Both the position numbers and the translations under genes were made by a program. DNA of 5,749 nucleotides from a plasmid: sequence record NZ_CP102537.1; one strand, written 5' to 3'. Below are positions 1 through 5,749 of the stretch, piece by piece. The stretch's first letter is position 1, and the number at the start of each line of letters is the position of its first letter. The notes beneath the pieces were generated by a model that saw only the letters and a program-made list of their open reading frames with translations, had not been told where the DNA came from and made no database searches.

Positions 1-196
1 GACACCGAAAGAGCCAACGAAGAACGCGGACGAGGAGGGCCGAAACAATTCCAAAACGAAAGTGCGCAGCTTCAGTGTCCGCCTTGACCTTTGGGAGAAG
101 CTGGACACCTATCGAATCACACACCGCACCAAATCTGGGACAATCCCCTCGGCTTCAAGCATAGTAAACGAAGCCCTTGAAGCCTACCTCAAATGA
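1..196 (+). CDS. 3'-partial CDS entering from before position 1, read in the frame of position 2, stop TGA at 194-196. Translation: ...TPKEPTKNADEEGRNNSKTKVRSFSVRLDLWEKLDTYRITHRTKSGTIPSASSIVNEALEAYLK*. C-terminal ribbon-helix-helix-like fold, with a putative beta-strand (KVRSFSVRL) followed by two helices. Candidate ParG-type partition adaptor/repressor.
   Basis: Hand translation of frame 2 shows no stops from position 2 to 196. The basic-strand/helix/helix pattern is typical of small RHH proteins. It continues in frame the partial ORF at 5688-5749 if the sequence is circular. Confidence 0.5.
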   Translation, partial: TPKEPTKNADEEGRNNSKTKVRSFSVRLDLWEKLDTYRITHRTKSGTIPSASSIVNEALEAYLK

Positions 197-275
197 CTAT
201 GACACTATCAACTATGACACTATGACACTATCAACTATGACACTATCAACTATTACACCATGACACTCATAGTTG
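194..275. repeat. Iteron-like direct-repeat array: five perfect copies of ATGACACT at 199, 214, 222, 237 and 260, and one degenerate copy ATTACACC at 252. Three copies are separated by the 7-bp spacer ATCAACT, giving a 15-bp period. The array is closed by an inverted element TCATAGTTG at 267-275, which is the reverse complement of CAACTATGA.
   Basis: Read directly from the sequence. It lies between two convergent genes, the RHH ORF stop at 194-196 and the rep stop at 253-255, and overlaps the last codons of rep. Confidence 0.85.
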
Positions 276-1737
276 GCAGATAGTCCCCCGGTTTGGCTTC
301 GCCATCAGCTATGGCGTCCTGCTGTTCGTCAGTGAGTATGACGCCACCGGGCAAGAGCCGTGCGACTTCCTGCCAGTCTTCGCGTTCGGCGGCATCCAAT
401 GCGTCGGCCAGTGTCTCAGGCGCACTCTTGCGAATGTCTTTGTAAACCCGATTCGGCACGACATAGCCGACCAGACCGGGCAGTTCGTCGGCTTTCTCCG
501 CCAGCTCCTCGTCTTCCAGTTCCTCGACCTCCATGTCTTCCTTGAGGCCACGCGACCATGTTATGCAGCGGCGGCGCAGAGTGGCCTGCCAGTATTCGAG
601 CCAGAGATCTTCGCGCTGGAAATCGGACAGCCCGAGGCACCCGGAGTCCAGCAATTGGAACGGGTTAACCGACCCCATACGACCATTCTTGATATCGCCG
701 CGCGCGATTTCCTGAGCCAGAGTGACGCCGCCTTTGTCGCCTTGAATCTTGGTGATGTATTCGGCCGCAGCGGTTCCGGCGTCCTTGCCCGACTTGAATT
801 GCAGATCTATGCCGTGTTCGTCGTTCGGGGCGACGTTGTAGGGGTTGCCGTCTTTTTTCTTGTATGCCTTGGCAACGCGCTTGACCATGGTTTTCCAGCG
901 ATCGAGCAGCCATTGCTGCATTGCCTCACGCTGCCCATCGTCCAGATCGCCATCGAGAAACATGACGAAATGAATGTGAGGGTGCCAGCCGTTCACACCG
1001 TAGGTGATTTCAATCGCGCGGACGAAACCCCTGATTTTCCAACGTTCCGAGGCCCGTTGCCAAGGGCTTCCGTTAATCATCTTCGTCCAGCCCTTGAGGA
1101 TTGCGTCAAGGGTCATGGCCAGCGGCATTGTCCGATCATGGCGCAGGGTGAGGGTGCCGAAGATGTAGTTTCCGAAGCTGTCGGACACCATGAGTTCCGG
1201 CGGCAGACGCTGCCCCTCATGTTCTGCCTGCCATTGGTCGGCGGCGGCTTTCCTCAGTTTCTCGGCATGGTTCCCGATGGCGAGGGCGACCTCGTGGGCG
1301 CGTTCGTGGCGAATGATTGCCGAGCAGGTGGGGCATGCCCAGATCGAGCCGCACAGCATGGTGCCTGTAAACCGGGCTTTCTCGCCGTTGGTCATGACAC
1401 CCACGCCGGTGTCCACCGGTTGGCCGCAGCGTGCGCAGCGCGGCAGCTTAATCGGCTCGAATCCGAGCGTTTCGCCACCGGCATGACGGACGAGAATCTT
1501 TCGGCTTTCAGCGCGGCGACCATACGCCAGACGCCGTAAATCGGTGCGGGAGAGGGAGGGGGTTATTTTATTCGTCTTTTCCCAAGGCGGGCCGCTACGC
1601 GCCCCGCTTGCCGCTTCCGCGGCTACGCCTTGAGGCTTCGCCGCTACTGCGGCGTGCAGCCGTTCGGCGGTCTGGTGCTGGGACGGTGAAGGGACACCCA
1701 TCGGGTTCCACTTCGTCCCCTGAGTTGGTACACTCAT
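253..1737 (-). CDS. rep: Rolling-circle replication initiator (HUH endonuclease superfamily Rep), 494 aa.
   Basis: The three RCR motifs occur in canonical order. Motif 1 is FGTLTL at aa 193-198. Motif 2, the HUH motif, is GWHPHIHFVMF (H252/H254/H256, nt 970-984). Motif 3 is AAEYITK with catalytic-Tyr candidate Y327 (nt 757-759). An N-terminal CxxC...C...CxxC cluster (C101, C104, C129, C135, C138) is zinc-ribbon-like. ATG at 1735-1737. The C-terminal tail is acidic. Confidence 0.88.
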   Translation of the reverse strand: MSVPTQGTKWNPMGVPSPSQHQTAERLHAAVAAKPQGVAAEAASGARSGPPWEKTNKITPSLSRTDLRRLAYGRRAESRKILVRHAGGETLGFEPIKLPRCARCGQPVDTGVGVMTNGEKARFTGTMLCGSIWACPTCSAIIRHERAHEVALAIGNHAEKLRKAAADQWQAEHEGQRLPPELMVSDSFGNYIFGTLTLRHDRTMPLAMTLDAILKGWTKMINGSPWQRASERWKIRGFVRAIEITYGVNGWHPHIHFVMFLDGDLDDGQREAMQQWLLDRWKTMVKRVAKAYKKKDGNPYNVAPNDEHGIDLQFKSGKDAGTAAAEYITKIQGDKGGVTLAQEIARGDIKNGRMGSVNPFQLLDSGCLGLSDFQREDLWLEYWQATLRRRCITWSRGLKEDMEVEELEDEELAEKADELPGLVGYVVPNRVYKDIRKSAPETLADALDAAEREDWQEVARLLPGGVILTDEQQDAIADGEAKPGDYLPTMSVMV

Positions 1738-1789
1738 AGTGACGACTTTCTAAAGTTGTAGCCAGCGGTGCAAAGTTTGGCGACCTAGA

Positions 1790-1799
1790 CCGCTAGCGG
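1790..1799. promoter_or_regulatory. Perfect 10-bp palindrome CCGCTAGCGG in the rep upstream region. Possible operator or Rep/regulator binding site.
   Basis: Self-complementary 10-mer lying 53 bp upstream of the rep ATG, between the candidate -35 (TTGAAA, complement of 1802-1807) and -10 elements of a leftward promoter. Confidence 0.3.
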
Positions 1800-1811
1800 A
1801 CTTTCAAGATT

Positions 1812-1848
1812 CCCCCCGGGGTTCCAGCCCCGGGGGGTTTCCTTTTAT
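1812..1848 (+). terminator. GC-rich hairpin: CCCCCCGGGG (1812-1821), loop TTCCAG, CCCCGGGGGG (1828-1837), followed on the + strand by TTTCCTTTTAT. It has intrinsic-terminator geometry on the + strand. It also lies 16 nt downstream of the stop of the leftward FtsK-like gene, so it may act as a terminator or insulator for that operon.
   Basis: Perfect 10-bp stem with a 6-nt loop read from the sequence. The U-tract is present only on the + strand side; the - strand side reads AAUCUUGAAAG. Confidence 0.5.
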
Positions 1849-1863
1849 CAGCTGTGACTCAGT

Positions 1864-2724
1864 TTAAATTACACCCTTGTGATTCGCAACAACGGCCCTT
1901 TCTGCCTCCTCTTCGCTCACGTACGCGAATCGGCACATCACGTCTTCGCCGGTGGCCAGTCCGATGATGGCGCCACCACGACGGGCCGGTGGTATGTCGG
2001 TCGGGGAGGGGGAACCGTCCGGCATGTCGCCCAGTACGGCTCGTGCTGCTTCCGGTGTCTTGACGCGGAAGCAGATACGGTTCTCGCAGTTCTCGCGTAG
2101 TGCCGATGGCAGCGAATCGGTGGTAGGTTTCTGGGTGATGGCGAACAGGAGGAAGCCTCCCGACCGGCCTTTCTGCACTATCTCCGTGGCGGCGGCGGTG
2201 ATTTCCTCGGCCTTGTCTTTCGCCGGCTTGCCGCCCAGTATGCCTTTGGCGTTGAAGAAGCTCTGGCATTCATCGATGATGATCACTTCGAGTGGCGGGC
2301 GTTTATCGGGTTGGACGTTCCAATAGTTCGCGGAACCATACCGCTGACGCATAGAGGCTATACGACATTTCATTTCGTCATCGAGCCTCAGGAGGGTGTC
2401 ATGCACAGTATCAAGATCGCCACGAACGAATGTCGTGGCGTGTTCCGAGAACCAGCCCCAATCGTCGCCGCCCTTGCCGTCAATCACGTGGATATTGCAG
2501 CAGCCGGACAGGTACAGAGCCAATACGATGACCATCATTCCAGCGGTTTTGCCGCTTCCGGGAATGCCTCCCACAACGACTCCGGACGTGTTGGTGACAA
2601 TCAGTGTGGCGTCGTTTCCGTTGGCGAGTTTTCCCACCGTGATCCCGCCGGTTGCTGGGTCGAACGGCCGAAGCCGGAACGGTAGTGGTTCCGGCTTCGT
2701 GTTGTGGTTCCATGGCCATTTCAT
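1864..2724 (-). CDS. FtsK/SpoIIIE-family DNA-translocase ATPase, 286 aa from ATG 2722-2724. Resembles the TraB/TraSA/Tra main transfer proteins of actinomycete plasmids and AICEs. The frame stays open upstream to 2949, but that extension is Arg-rich and probably not coding.
   Basis: Walker A GGIPGSGKTAG. Walker B EVIIIDECQSF. FtsK signature block FLLFAITQKPTTDSLPSALRENCENRICFRVKTPEAARAVLGD, compare the FtsK motif ATQRPS...IKANIPTRIAFQV..DSR.IL. The ATG overlaps the upstream gene's TGA as ATGA (2721-2724). Confidence 0.85.
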   Translation of the reverse strand: MKWPWNHNTKPEPLPFRLRPFDPATGGITVGKLANGNDATLIVTNTSGVVVGGIPGSGKTAGMMVIVLALYLSGCCNIHVIDGKGGDDWGWFSEHATTFVRGDLDTVHDTLLRLDDEMKCRIASMRQRYGSANYWNVQPDKRPPLEVIIIDECQSFFNAKGILGGKPAKDKAEEITAAATEIVQKGRSGGFLLFAITQKPTTDSLPSALRENCENRICFRVKTPEAARAVLGDMPDGSPSPTDIPPARRGGAIIGLATGEDVMCRFAYVSEEEAERAVVANHKGVI

Positions 2725-3293
2725 GCGACCACTCCCGTGATGGGGCGATCTAGAGCGGTCTGGACGGTTTCGCCTGGCGAAAGCTGCAATGTGATTCTGC
2801 CAGGCCTTTTGCTGTCCTCGCTGATTGCGAACGAACGGCAGCGCCATACGCGGGCGTTCAATTGCAATAGTTCCTTGAGATGGTCCGGAGCCATTCCGGC
2901 TTCGCCGCCTCCGTCGAAAAACACGTAGGTGTCGCCCCGTTGCTTCCATGTGGTTGCGGGAATGACGTGTGTCTTGTCCGGGTCGTTGTAAATCTTCGCG
3001 GTACGCAGCGCGGCGCAGGTGTCCACCCGATCAGCTCGGGCGACCATGCCCCAGACGGGCACCATGTACACGATGGCGGGCGAGGCTCCCGACCTTATCG
3101 GACGCCAGAAGATTCCGACGACGAACAAGGCAGCAACGAGGGCGGTGAGTCCCCAGCCGATTGTTTTATAGCCGGCCATGAACAGGACGGCGATCAGTGC
3201 GGCGGGCAGCAGAATGCTGAGGGCAAACGCCGTGCCATAGTCCGGCGACTGCTTCCGCTCTTCAATCTTCTGCTGATCTTGCGTGCTAGTCAT
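2721..3293 (-). CDS. Small membrane protein, 190 aa from ATG 3291-3293. It has two N-terminal transmembrane helices (GTAFALSILLPAALIAVLFMAGY and GWGLTALVAALFVVGIFW) and a roughly 110-aa soluble C-terminal domain. Candidate Spd-like spread protein or membrane partner of the FtsK-like ATPase.
   Basis: Hydrophobic helices read from the translation. GGAGG lies 6 nt upstream of ATG 3293. The alternative GTG start at 3332 would overlap the upstream gene by 47 nt. The stop TGA overlaps the ATG of the ATPase gene. Confidence 0.6.
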   Translation of the reverse strand: MTSTQDQQKIEERKQSPDYGTAFALSILLPAALIAVLFMAGYKTIGWGLTALVAALFVVGIFWRPIRSGASPAIVYMVPVWGMVARADRVDTCAALRTAKIYNDPDKTHVIPATTWKQRGDTYVFFDGGGEAGMAPDHLKELLQLNARVWRCRSFAISEDSKRPGRITLQLSPGETVQTALDRPITGVVA

Positions 3294-3657
3294 TGTCCGC
3301 CTCCGTGAGGTCGAACGAGGCCGAGAGGTCACGCATATACTGTGCCTGCGCGTGACGGGTCATGTAGCGGTCGTGCAGGTACTCCCACGCTGTGGCGGTG
3401 ACGCGCAGCTCATACCATTCGGCACCGTAGACATCGCGGTCGATTATGGTCAGCCAGCGAGGCCAGTCGTCACCGAGGAGATCGCGGGCGACCTGAGCGG
3501 CATCGCCGCGAGTCTCAAAGCTGATTCCGACCATGTTGGCGAGAATCCCATAGCGCACGGCCTTTTCGCCGTCACAGGTGAGATCGAAGCCACAGCGAAG
3601 CGCGTAGTCGAGGAGCTTTCGGTCGAGCTCCAATGTGAACGTGTCTTCTTTTTCCAT
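3286..3657 (-). CDS. Hypothetical protein, 123 aa, with no motif I can recognise.
   Basis: ATG at 3655-3657 preceded by GGAGG, 5-nt spacing. It directly abuts the stop of the upstream RHH gene (TGA at 3658-3660). Its stop TAG at 3286-3288 lies 2 nt before the next ATG. Coding-like composition. Confidence 0.55.
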   Translation of the reverse strand: MEKEDTFTLELDRKLLDYALRCGFDLTCDGEKAVRYGILANMVGISFETRGDAAQVARDLLGDDWPRWLTIIDRDVYGAEWYELRVTATAWEYLHDRYMTRHAQAQYMRDLSASFDLTEADND

Positions 3658-3825
3658 TCATTCCTCCATTCGAGCGAGCATTGCGGGCACTTCCGCTTCC
3701 ACAAGACGGTTGATGATGCTGGAGCGCGAAGTGTTGGTGTACCCCTCACGCTTGGCCCTATAGACGGCATCGTCCAGAGCGGCGACGGTGGTGCAGGGCA
3801 ATGTGATGCAGATACGGCGAAGCAT
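3658..3825 (-). CDS. Ribbon-helix-helix (CopG/Arc/MetJ-type) DNA-binding protein, 55 aa: MLRRICITLPCTTVAALDDAVYRAKREGYTNTSRSSIINRLVEAEVPAMLARMEE. Likely operon repressor.
   Basis: An N-terminal beta-strand (RICITLP) followed by two helices is the typical RHH layout. ATG at 3823-3825 preceded by GGAGGAGGAG, 5-nt spacing. The longer ORF-track start at 3930 lacks this RBS and would overlap the upstream gene. Confidence 0.6.
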   Translation of the reverse strand: MLRRICITLPCTTVAALDDAVYRAKREGYTNTSRSSIINRLVEAEVPAMLARMEE

Positions 3826-3827
3826 TT

Positions 3828-4223
3828 TCACTCCTCCTCCAACGACGGCATGATGGGCGCTGTATCCAGCTGCATGACCCGTACGGAATCGGCGGTCAGA
3901 GACCATGCGACGCGGCCGTTCCTGACCCACGGAACGACGTGAACGGAGCCGGTCAGCTGGATACGGGAGAGCGGCGGAACAGGCGAGATAGGCGCAGTGA
4001 ACACGGCAAGGCTGACGTTGCTATCCACACCGTTTTCGTCGATGTACTGGCAGGGAATCTGGAAAACCGGGCGACCGTCAACGAGTTTTGGCGTGGTTGT
4101 CACGTGCCCCTGATCGTCGTACGTCATCTTCTGCCGGATAGTGGCGGGGTCGATTCCCCGCGTCGTCTGAAACGCGCCGGGAATGTCGGCGGCGTTCATG
4201 GCGAGGTTCGGACTGAATGGCAT
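3828..4223 (-). CDS. Hypothetical protein, 131 aa from ATG 4221-4223. Composition suggests a beta-rich fold. First gene of the leftward operon.
   Basis: GGGAG RBS 6 nt upstream of ATG 4223. The longer GTG start at 4337 would lie inside the promoter/operator region, upstream of the predicted -10. Stop TGA at 3828-3830 lies 2 nt before the RHH ATG. Confidence 0.5.
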   Translation of the reverse strand: MPFSPNLAMNAADIPGAFQTTRGIDPATIRQKMTYDDQGHVTTTPKLVDGRPVFQIPCQYIDENGVDSNVSLAVFTAPISPVPPLSRIQLTGSVHVVPWVRNGRVAWSLTADSVRVMQLDTAPIMPSLEEE

Positions 4224-4246
4224 GAAAGCTCCCTTCGTGAGTTGTA

Positions 4247-4329
4247 GCTGGGGCACGGGATTGCGCCCCAGCGGACTTTCACCAAACAGCATACAGGCAT
4301 ACCTGTATATTGTCAACAGTTTAAACTGT
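4247..4329. promoter_or_regulatory. Cluster of dyad symmetries in the divergent intergenic region. An 8-bp-stem hairpin GCTGGGGC...GCCCCAGC (4247-4272) falls in the 5'UTR of the leftward operon. The inverted repeat ATACAGGcataCCTGTAT (4291-4308) sits inside the promoter spacer. A perfect 14-bp palindrome ACAGTTTAAACTGT lies at 4316-4329. CTGTAT/ACTGTA motifs recur at 4303-4308, 4325-4330 and 4344-4349. Likely operator sites.
   Basis: Read directly from the sequence. The sites overlap the candidate promoters of both divergent transcription units. Confidence 0.5.
4288..4316 (-). promoter_or_regulatory. Candidate sigma-70-type promoter for the leftward five-gene operon. The -35 TTGACA is the complement of 4311-4316, followed by a 17-nt spacer. 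The -10 TATGCT is the complement of 4288-4293.
   Basis: Perfect -35 hexamer with canonical spacing, read on the minus strand. The spacer contains the inverted repeat ATACAGG-n4-CCTGTAT (4291-4308). Confidence 0.4.
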
Positions 4330-4358
4330 AGGTACACCCTAGACTGTATGATTTAAAC

Positions 4359-4862
4359 ATGAATCAGCCAAAATTCGACATCATTCCCGACGAAACGAAC
4401 CGGGAACACAACACCAGAACCAAAGCGGCACTGGAGCTGCTGGAAAGCAACAAAGAATTACGCGACTGGGCAAAAACCCACTTCCTCGCAGAATTACGCA
4501 ACATGATTACCAATCAGATAGTCGAGGAAGGTCATGAACTCTCAGACGAACTCATGAAGTACGGCGTACGACTGTGCCCCAAAGTCGCCATGGTTTGGAT
4601 CGCCAATGAATTGGAGAACAACGTGGGCGCGATTACAGAATGGCTTGCCGGTTTTGCCTACTGGGAGGGCGACAGCAAGGCAAATCTTGCAAGGGCTGTA
4701 GGAATACGCCAACAAAGCTACGCCACCCATTTCCGGCAGCTAGAAGAAATCGCAGCAGCCCAAAACAAGGCCGACGAAACCGGACAAGACCAAACAATCA
4801 GCCTCCGAGGGGCACCATTCATAATTCACCCCGGACCCAGCGAAGAAGAAGACCAGGAATAA
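4359..4862 (+). CDS. Hypothetical protein, 167 aa, with a helix-turn-helix-like segment (SKANLARAVGIRQQSYATHFRQL) and an acidic C-terminus. Possible regulator. Lower-GC module.
   Basis: Long ORF with coding-like composition and no SD. A TATGAT -10-like hexamer (4347-4352), preceded by TG, ends 6 nt before the ATG, which suggests a leaderless mRNA. Confidence 0.55.
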   Translation: MNQPKFDIIPDETNREHNTRTKAALELLESNKELRDWAKTHFLAELRNMITNQIVEEGHELSDELMKYGVRLCPKVAMVWIANELENNVGAITEWLAGFAYWEGDSKANLARAVGIRQQSYATHFRQLEEIAAAQNKADETGQDQTISLRGAPFIIHPGPSEEEDQE

Positions 4863-4910
4863 GTGTTCTTGTTTTCTTTCATGCGGGATTGTGCGTTCCG
4901 GCCACCGGAG

Positions 4911-4973
4911 AGTCAAATCTTCAAACCGCGAGGCGGTTTGGTGTGTCTATATAGACACACATCAGATTTGACT
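4911..4973. repeat. Nested dyad-symmetry element. Outer 10-bp arms AGTCAAATCT (4911-4920) and AGATTTGACT (4964-4973) enclose a hairpin CAAACCGC-gag-GCGGTTTG (4922-4940) and a perfect 20-bp palindrome GTGTGTCTATATAGACACAC (4941-4960). Candidate centromere/operator for the par module, and/or terminator of the upstream ORF.
   Basis: All symmetries are perfect and were read from the sequence. The element lies 49 bp after the stop of ORF 4359-4862 and about 120 bp before parA. Confidence 0.55.
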
Positions 4974-5079
4974 ATCCGGCGTCCTCCACTGGGATTTCGC
5001 ATTTAGAAAGAAAACCAGAACCGGAAAACATTCGTCAGCGAACCACCAAAACTATTACACTATCAGAATATTAGTGCGA

Positions 5080-5085
5080 TAGAAT
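5080..5085 (+). promoter_or_regulatory. Candidate -10 hexamer TAGAAT, 6 nt upstream of the parA ATG, with no SD. This implies a leaderless parA transcript.
   Basis: Same -10-to-ATG geometry as at ORF 4359-4862. An iteron-like segment ACTATTACACTATCA (5051-5065) lies just upstream. Confidence 0.3.
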
Positions 5086-5091
5086 AACGGC

Positions 5092-5691
5092 ATGATACTT
5101 AGCATTATCGCGTCAAAAGGCGGAACCGGGAAAACGACCAGCAGCATATTCCTAGCCTGCGCCGCTCATACCGCAGACCCGTCACTGTCAATCACCCTCT
5201 TGGACGCCGACCCACAGCAAAGCGCCACGGACTGGGCGGAAGAAGCCGAGCAAAACAAAGACCCGCTCCCTTTCATGGTCAAATACGCCGGAGAATCGGA
5301 CATCGAAAACCTAAAGGACAACGAGGGCCTGACCATCATCGACACGGCACCGGGATTCACCGACCTCACCCAGACAATCATCGCCAAATCAGATCTGTGC
5401 ATCATCACCACCTCACCAACCCAGATTGACGCCCGGAGGGCTTGGAAGACGTTCGAAGCAATCCAAAGAGCAGGCGGAACCTCGGCAATCCTCATCACAC
5501 GAGCCAATACGCGCACGAAGGATTTCAGGGATATGATCGACGACCTGCACAACGACGACGCGAACAATGGAATCCTCTTCGATACCGTCATCAGACAATC
5601 GACCAGATACTCGAAGCCGTTCGGACACACGCCAAAGAAAACCTACGACTATGCAGACGCATGGCAAGAGATACAGAAAGCAGGGGAATGA
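5092..5691 (+). CDS. parA: ParA/Soj-family partition ATPase, small type Ib form, 199 aa.
   Basis: Deviant Walker A KGGTGKTT at the extreme N-terminus (MILSIIASKGGTGKTTS). Walker A' is DADPQ and Walker B is IIDTAPG. Its size and the absence of an N-terminal HTH fit the ParF-like subclass. Confidence 0.88.
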   Translation: MILSIIASKGGTGKTTSSIFLACAAHTADPSLSITLLDADPQQSATDWAEEAEQNKDPLPFMVKYAGESDIENLKDNEGLTIIDTAPGFTDLTQTIIAKSDLCIITTSPTQIDARRAWKTFEAIQRAGGTSAILITRANTRTKDFRDMIDDLHNDDANNGILFDTVIRQSTRYSKPFGHTPKKTYDYADAWQEIQKAGE

Positions 5692-5749
5692 TGGCACTCG
5701 GAAAATTCAGCAGGAAAGCAGCCGAACAGGCACCCGGCGACATCTCAAT
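5688..5749 (+). CDS. 5'-partial CDS, MMALGKFSRKAAEQAPGDIS..., that runs off the window end. Its start overlaps the parA stop as ATGA. Candidate N-terminal flexible tail of a ParG-like centromere-binding partner. It is in frame with the partial ORF at 1-196 across the end-to-start junction.
   Basis: ATG 5688-5690 overlaps TGA 5689-5691. The frame is open to the end. The last two bases AT plus base 1 G form ATG, and the frame continues into the frame-2 ORF ending at 196. Confidence 0.45.
   Translation, partial: MMALGKFSRKAAEQAPGDIS

Follow-up and report, generated by a model that had tools for sequence, protein, structure and literature searches.

A complete circular Bifidobacterium breve plasmid, probably pCIBb1, with a candidate type Ib partition cassette and a small gene split between the ends of its record

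We have analyzed a stretch of 5,749 nucleotides from the plasmid record NZ_CP102537.1 (the window, always taken at its full length) and found that the two partial open reading frames (ORFs) at its ends belong to a single gene. The window is a complete circular plasmid of 5,749 bp that had been opened inside this small gene, which directly follows parA. An earlier note, made from the letters alone, had proposed exactly this, and the proposal is confirmed by permuted, overlap-ended contigs from independent samples. Our overall explanation, which we hold with high confidence, is that of a complete circular rolling-circle plasmid of the gut bacterium Bifidobacterium breve, probably pCIBb1, carrying a type Ib partition cassette. 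The split gene probably encodes the DNA-binding partner of the partition ATPase. In terms of bookkeeping, the window is to be treated as a finished circular plasmid. The features around the junction are these:

5092 to 5691, plus strand: parA, small Walker-type partition ATPase of 199 amino acids (aa) with the motif KGGTGKT and without an N-terminal DNA-binding domain (Pfam CbiA/VirC1/AAA_31)
5691 to 5749, plus strand: 5' part of the small gene, ParA partner of 84/85 aa (from the translation and the MAL-type starts of the homologues; alternative ATG at 5688)
1 to 196, plus strand: 3' part of the small gene (the ATG that begins at 5748 ends with base 1; TGA stop codon at 194-196)

When position 5749 is joined to position 1, translation across the junction gives an unbroken ORF of 85 aa (MMALGKFSRKAAEQAPGDISMTPKEP...NEALEAYLK), the continuous product that the note had predicted. 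The exact protein is present in NCBI (UUY18121.1 / WP_257819521.1, 'hypothetical protein NUU00_10035 (plasmid) [Bifidobacterium breve]'). Specifically, the ATG at 5688-5690 overlaps the parA stop codon (TGA, 5689-5691) as ATGA, the frame runs for 20 codons up to 5747, the AT at 5748-5749 and the G at position 1 form an ATG codon, and the frame from position 2 stays open until the TGA. The remaining five frames over the junction have stops within about 100 codons. The overlap by which the 5688 ORF was said to be coupled to parA does exist, but the true start is more likely the second ATG at 5691 (84 aa, TGATG overlap), to judge from the N-termini of the homologues, which are M-A-(L/I/A) or M-I-A in 17/17 cases, and from the spacing of a Shine-Dalgarno-like GGGG run (5683-5686) located 4 nt before this ATG. 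The start at 5691 is also the one chosen by the gene callers in public assemblies, and the 84-aa version is present on 255 contigs. RefSeq lists in addition a 94-aa version that starts at 5661.

Within the window itself no terminal self-overlap was found, and therefore the evidence for circularity had to come from outside data. We searched public assemblies for the exact ParA protein and fetched metagenome and Sequence Read Archive (SRA) contigs. The protein appeared in 312 collection blocks; the longest contig was between 5 and 10 kb in 249 of them, and contigs longer than 10 kb with this exact protein were found in none of the 312. Ten contigs, fetched from ten samples and produced with MEGAHIT-type k141 and SPAdes-type k55 assemblers or by Logan k31, were all 5.78-5.87 kb long and had a terminal direct repeat equal to the assembler overlap (141, 55 or 29-30 nt). 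After removal of the overlap the unit lengths were 5,726-5,756 bp, and exactly 5,749 bp in 6 of the 10. All of them matched the doubled window end to end at 99.5-99.98% identity, with break points at window coordinates 191, 1531, 1580, 1707, 2701, 3101, 3626, 3955, 4369 and 4708. Such scattered breaks, together with overlaps of the length of the assembler k, indicate one circular molecule opened at arbitrary points. Besides, of the 13 contigs that ParA or Rep had retrieved, 12 contained in their interior exact copies of the 80-bp junction (40 bases from either end of the window) and of the joined ORF, and the thirteenth has its own cut inside the split gene. The presence of the junction and the ORF inside these independent contigs indicates that the join is real and no chance match of frames. 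We also looked among the contigs for flanking sequence differing from the other end of the window, and none was found. As to being a complete replicon, the plasmid carries its own initiator (Rep_1, above the Pfam cutoff) and origin candidates whose function is predicted.

Two other readings of the window are already contradicted by these data. According to the first of them, it would be a fragment of a larger replicon or of an integrated element and the in-frame join would be coincidental (for the frame alone, the prior is about 1/3). A distant relative of the cassette is indeed located in a 165-kb contig of B. boum, and in a 10.9-kb scaffold a close variant is linked to a second replicon, which carries MobA and Rep3 genes. 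But the exact ParA was never on a contig above 10 kb, the full-length contigs are all circular permutations with assembler-k overlaps and the exact junction, NCBI places the joined protein on a B. breve plasmid, and an integrase gene is absent from the window ORFs (translations, Pfam), so that we regard this reading as extremely improbable. The probability is just as negligible that the 5,749-bp circle is an assembly artefact, either a collapsed repeat or the monomer of a larger tandem structure. The assemblies do differ in unit length, and the differences fall in a short tandem array, which short reads can resolve wrongly. Yet the same circle came out of three assembler families (MEGAHIT k141, SPAdes-type k55 and Logan k31), six assemblies gave exactly 5,749 bp, and the size agrees with that of a laboratory-isolated plasmid of 5.75 kb, as given in the title of reference 19 in PMC4007704.

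Among the close variants, one of 10,869 bp (L024) and two of 6,571 bp (L025 and L026) have an extra gene of 154 aa between rep and the translocase gene. The L024 scaffold consists of the plasmid plus the second replicon (MobA_MobL and Rep3 genes) and is either a cointegrate or a mis-scaffold.

The ParA of the window corresponds to WP_010891329.1 ('ParA family protein (plasmid) [Bifidobacterium breve]'), an old RefSeq accession. The cryptic 5.75-kb plasmid pCIBb1 of B. breve NCFB 2258 was described in 1999 by O'Riordan & Fitzgerald, whose paper, judging from its title as cited in PMC4007704, determined the mode of replication; according to PMC4007704 and PMC12724246, the plasmid was found again in the NCFB 2258 genome. 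The window is probably pCIBb1 or a near-identical copy of it, because size (5,749 bp versus 5.75 kb), host species and the old RefSeq accession agree, and the window proteins are listed in NCBI under B. breve plasmids. The difference is that many near-identical copies of the window exist, which vary by a few single nucleotide polymorphisms (SNPs) and by the number of array units. The plasmid is thus already known from public databases and the finding is correct but ordinary. Its novelty is low since the element is a known B. breve plasmid that is very common in public metagenomes, as the number of collection blocks with the exact ParA illustrates.

When we compared the initiator with those of other plasmids, the closest Rep in PLSDB was that of pASV479 from B. 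pseudolongum (52% identity), followed by pB21a from B. breve (36.5%) and pIJ101 (31%). In the GTDB genomes, the Rep encoded on a circular B. olomucense contig of 7.3 kb is 85% identical. The window and pASV479 have in common rep and the genes of the traB-like translocase, the membrane protein and the 131-aa and 167-aa products. Both pASV479 and pIJ101 resemble the window in the Rep_1 initiator and in a CTTGGGA-containing block near the 5' end of rep, but they lack the cassette of parA and small gene and the ACTATNA(C) array described below.

The ParA protein shows the properties of the type Ib class, being small (~200 aa), with a deviant Walker A motif (SKGGTGKT, residues 7-14) and without an N-terminal DNA-binding domain. 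It matched the NCBIfam model ParA_partition with an E-value of 4.9e-30 and 104.6 bits, under the curated cutoff of 180, and its best solved relative was ParF of TP228 (4dzz, E 9e-11, residues 2-175). A co-translated partner directly downstream and a conserved synteny were found as well. Four relatives of the small protein (34-56% identity) and the B. olomucense homologue (32-56% for the five together) are each encoded directly 3' of a ParA of 193-200 aa, with stop and start overlapping, and the coupled order of parA and small gene was seen in L015, L016, L018, L020/21 and L022. On the backbones of these relatives the Rep is of the Rep_1, RNA-helicase-like or RepSA type, or none is recognisable, and one of the backbones is the large B. 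boum contig already mentioned.

With regard to the small protein, residues 1-40 have no secondary structure in the AlphaFold model and pLDDT values (the per-residue confidence score of AlphaFold) of 50-59, which predicts a flexible N-terminal tail. The note had described this tail as disordered and basic; the disorder is indeed predicted, but the tail is only mildly basic (8 K/R versus 6 D/E in residues 1-41). Residues 42-85 would form a domain resembling the ribbon-helix-helix (RHH) fold. Modelled alone, this C-domain reached a mean pLDDT of 89.7, with an extended segment (S-F-S-V-R-L) of alternating polar and hydrophobic residues followed by two predicted helices of 13 residues each, at 49-61 and 72-84. 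In the profile search against PDB the natural proteins near the top were all RHH proteins aligned on the C-domain (the CopG-family protein 9kkd, E 0.0039, EndoAI and NikR), and individual members of the family gave weak Pfam matches to RHH_1, RHH_3, RHH_5, Arc and VapB. The C-terminal domain would therefore be RHH-like on weak but consistent indications: the RHH assignment made in the note finds some support in mutually consistent weak matches and in the helix-loop-helix model, but not by a significant match to the ParG fold. The search against ParG and RHH profiles that had been suggested there had the same outcome, ParG being not significant and RHH matches being weak. Artificial alphaRep proteins, which were the top profile matches, were rejected as an artefact produced by summed sub-threshold matches of a short N-terminal motif to a repeat protein.

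Outside the domain, conservation is highest in an N-terminal peptide (MAL..FSRKSAE.APG.I.), and the linker is variable both in length and in sequence. The analogy with ParG and omega makes this peptide the likely element that contacts ParA and stimulates its ATPase. The family is small. An exhaustive HMMER search of 1.8 billion representatives gave nine proteins, and a profile search of a 5.8-billion set gave 16 clusters, none with a Pfam domain and nearly all on contigs of 1-14 kb. Most likely, the small protein is the founding member of a family that has no annotation yet and consists of RHH-type proteins serving as partners of ParF-like ATPases in small rolling-circle plasmids. We lean, by a small measure, towards a more specific version of this proposal, namely an unannotated family of RHH centromere-binding proteins with about 17 clusters, no Pfam model and an almost exclusive distribution on Bifidobacterium-type plasmids of 3-8 kb, with ParF-like partners and a downstream centromere of 7-8-bp units.

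The putative sites of this protein are located at both sides of the operon:

196 to 272, plus strand: array in which about 10 units of 7-8 bp, ACTAT(G/C/T)A(C), follow each other without gaps and the last is inverted; candidate centromere (motif count, unit-wise length variation)
5051 to 5066, plus strand: two further units, ACTATTAC ACTATCA, which precede the ATG of parA by 26-41 nt; candidate operator

The array begins right after the stop codon of the small gene and overlaps the last 6 codons of rep. In the window ACTATBA was observed at 12 sites versus 1.2 expected (about 10-fold), in clusters at 196-273 and 5051-5065. The ATGACACTAT motif was also found in L016, where it lies upstream of parA, and in L020/L021, where it comes shortly after the small gene. 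In cassettes that are more distant, the equivalent places are occupied by other repeats. A motif shared by the near cassettes and differing in the distant ones is what would be expected if the protein and its site co-evolve. In pASV479, which has the same backbone and is par-less, the array was not found. We infer from the sequence that the array is the centromere and the upstream pair the operator, the former because the repeats travel with the cassette and are missing from pASV479 together with par. The possibility that the array represents iterons or the origin of Rep was considered and dropped as the main reading, since to our knowledge Rep_1 initiators do not use iterons, pASV479 lacks the array, and the CTTGGGA block is a better origin candidate.

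The near-identical copies of the plasmid (99.5-99.9%; L001, L002, L004, L005 and L024) vary by whole array units (-8, -23 and +7 nt), and the 6.5-kb variant has about six of them. These changes of length could be real slippage or a collapse in short-read assembly. A lone ACTATGA unit at 1740 (minus strand) overlaps the annotated start codon of rep (CACTATGAGTG). It could couple the par regulator to the expression of rep, or be there by chance.

Beyond the circularity, gene order, synteny and repeats, which were directly observed, we would attribute to this type Ib cassette DNA binding, autoregulation and ATPase stimulation by analogy with known systems. In the proposed mechanism, dimers of the small protein would bind the contiguous 7-8-bp ACTATNA(C) units at 196-272 to form the partition complex, and would also occupy the two units upstream of parA and so repress the operon. 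The N-terminal tail would touch and stimulate the ParF-like ParA, the proposed stimulating piece being the arginine-containing peptide MALGKFSRKAAEQAPGDI, and ParA would position the plasmid copies over the nucleoid.

One of the closest known counterparts of the cassette is the type Ib system ParF-ParG-parH of TP228. The ParA of the window, being small and lacking a DNA-binding domain, has ParF as its best solved relative, the adjacent partner of 75-90 aa has a flexible N-tail and a C-domain predicted to have two helices after a strand-like segment, and short repeats about 8 bp apart are the likely site. The sites bound by ParG are arrayed ACTC boxes separated by spacers of 4 bp, and an arginine in its tail stimulates ParF. 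The differences are that no homology to ParG is detectable, that the main array lies here downstream of the operon and not upstream, and that the sequence of the repeats is another one. A second counterpart is the delta-omega system of pSM19035. Omega is an RHH protein of 71 aa with a disordered N-tail that acts as repressor and as centromere-binding protein; it binds contiguous 7-bp heptads, direct and inverted, and activates delta, an ATPase of the ParA type. The site architecture is the same in the window, where contiguous units of 7-8 bp include an inverted one. However, omega gave no match in the PDB searches, the ParA is smaller here and ParF-like, and the host is an actinobacterium.

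Several points weigh against our explanation. Rolling-circle plasmids are usually multicopy and often have no active partition. Single-sequence searches of Pfam, NCBIfam and PDB with the 85-aa protein gave no match, and the matches to RHH proteins are weak when taken one by one. The comparison with ParG by hhalign (using a ParG sequence checked against 1p94) gave a probability of 12% over 20 columns, covering the last helix (helix 2) only. The term ParG-type, used in the note, is thus suitable for the architecture and the reading of the function, but does not extend to membership of the ParG sequence family. The array is found at the 3' end of rep, over its last codons, where a role in replication is conceivable. 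Finally, a megablast of the whole window against PLSDB, from which the pCIBb1 record is missing, returned only a 33-bp match.

Some of these points would fit an alternative in which the small protein is only a transcriptional repressor (CopG- or omega-like, or an orphan antitoxin), the array belongs to replication control or is the origin of Rep, and parA works with another factor or is vestigial. RHH proteins of such size are frequently plain repressors or antitoxins, the VapB and EndoAI antitoxins appear among the weak matches, the array abuts and overlaps rep, a further ACTATGA coincides with the rep start codon, and the par cassette converges on rep in several relatives. Nevertheless, at least four different backbones retain the translational coupling to a ParF-like ParA, and no toxin gene was found among the window ORFs (translations, Pfam). 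As to the replication role, pASV479 has a 52%-identical Rep and still lacks the array, L016 has a Rep of another type and still the same motif upstream of parA, and there is a better origin candidate at 1560-1592. For these reasons we consider the repressor alternative unlikely, if far more plausible than the two readings that deny the circular plasmid.

The small protein is still annotated as 'hypothetical' in the databases, and its recognition as a likely centromere-binding partner could help in the construction of more stable cloning vectors for Bifidobacterium. The partition cassette would be a further example of active partition in a small rolling-circle plasmid and, if the new RHH family is real, it would provide active partition for small rolling-circle plasmids that are usually assumed to segregate randomly.

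The replication features of the window are as follows:

253 to 1737, minus strand: rep, Rep_1 (pC194/pIJ101) rolling-circle initiator of 494 aa with an HPHIH motif (Pfam Rep_1, 45.2 bits versus a cutoff of 33.2, E 1e-11)
1560 to 1592, minus strand: candidate double-strand origin, the 31-nt block GCCTTGGGAAAAGACGAATAAAATAACCCCC (conserved at the nucleotide level, flanks diverging)
4865 to 5021, no strand assigned: candidate single-strand origin, a 157-nt imperfect palindrome between the 167-aa gene and parA (single-stranded DNA fold)

The HUH-type motif of Rep was read in the translation as WHPHIHFVM. The 1999 study of pCIBb1 reportedly found rolling-circle replication with single-stranded replication intermediates. 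The GCCTTGGGAAAAGACGAATAAAATAACCCCC block is kept at the nucleotide level in the B. olomucense, B. boum and pASV479 relatives, four lineages if the window is included (L015 5727-5753; L021 5564-5590; L014 ~1890; L027 ~1337), and pIJ101 has a similar CTTGGGAAAG just upstream of rep. It is the best candidate for the double-strand origin, and likely this origin or the nick region. The block lies within codons 49-59 of the 494-aa rep ORF, and therefore the start of rep at 1737 may have been placed too far upstream, or the origin may lie inside the gene. The palindrome at 4865-5021 folds as single-stranded DNA with -49.9 kcal/mol and a z of -11.4 on the minus strand (-9.1 on the plus strand). An 11-bp GC-rich hairpin (CCCCCCGGGG..CCCCGGGGGG) at 1812-1837, between the translocase gene and rep, is kept in the B. 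olomucense plasmid and partly in pASV479. It is terminator-like on the plus strand only, and no gene ends there.

The cassette converges on the 3' end of rep in four plasmid types, whose replication proteins belong to different families, Rep_1, RNA-helicase-like or RepSA (window 5092-253, L016 2917-5014, L021 3427-5549, L022 570-2562). In B. olomucense it is located after rep in the same direction. No Shine-Dalgarno sequence precedes parA, and the distance from the end of a TAGAAT hexamer to its ATG is 6 nt (window 5080-5094, seen by eye). The par operon may be transcribed as a leaderless mRNA. A promoter scan of the window gave no more matches than shuffled sequence and did not call the TAGAAT site near parA. 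Since shuffled sequence scored alike, we have not taken the scan as evidence about the parA promoter.

The gene content that the note had listed (rep, a transfer operon, a par module and one unknown regulator) was recovered in full, as the Rep_1 gene, an FtsK/TraB-like operon, the parA cassette and a 167-aa ORF. The remaining genes are:

1864 to 2724, minus strand: FtsK/SpoIIIE/TraB-like DNA translocase of 286 aa (weak Pfam and NCBIfam matches; PDB match)
2721 to 3293, minus strand: predicted membrane protein of 190 aa, translationally coupled to the translocase gene (kept in pASV479 and the B. olomucense plasmid)
3286 to 3657, minus strand: 123-aa ORF of unknown function in the transfer operon (translation)
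3658 to 3825, minus strand: 55-aa ORF in the transfer operon, MLRRICITLPCTTVAALDDAVYRAK...SIINRLVEAE (read from the sequence)
3828 to 4223, minus strand: ORF of 131 aa (or 154 aa with a start further upstream), with which the minus-strand operon begins (identity of 50-79% in related plasmids)
4359 to 4862, plus strand: ORF of 167 aa and of unknown function, transcribed divergently from the transfer operon and a candidate regulator (conservation in related plasmids weak)

The operon runs on the minus strand from 4223 to 1864 and ends in the translocase gene, which is preceded by that of the membrane protein. Against PDB, the translocase matched a 'DNA translocase coupling protein' (6o1w, E 8.5e-8) and also FtsK. 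The 55-aa ORF gave no family match in Pfam or NCBIfam; from its sequence it is possibly a second RHH-type regulator. No informative match was obtained for the 167-aa protein in family and structure-database searches. The best promoter-like site of the window (TTGACA-17-TATGCT, 4288-4316, minus strand) is located between the transfer operon and the 167-aa gene, and overlaps a palindrome with an 8-bp stem at 4290-4309. This divergent layout of promoter and palindrome recalls the korA/tra control in pIJ101.

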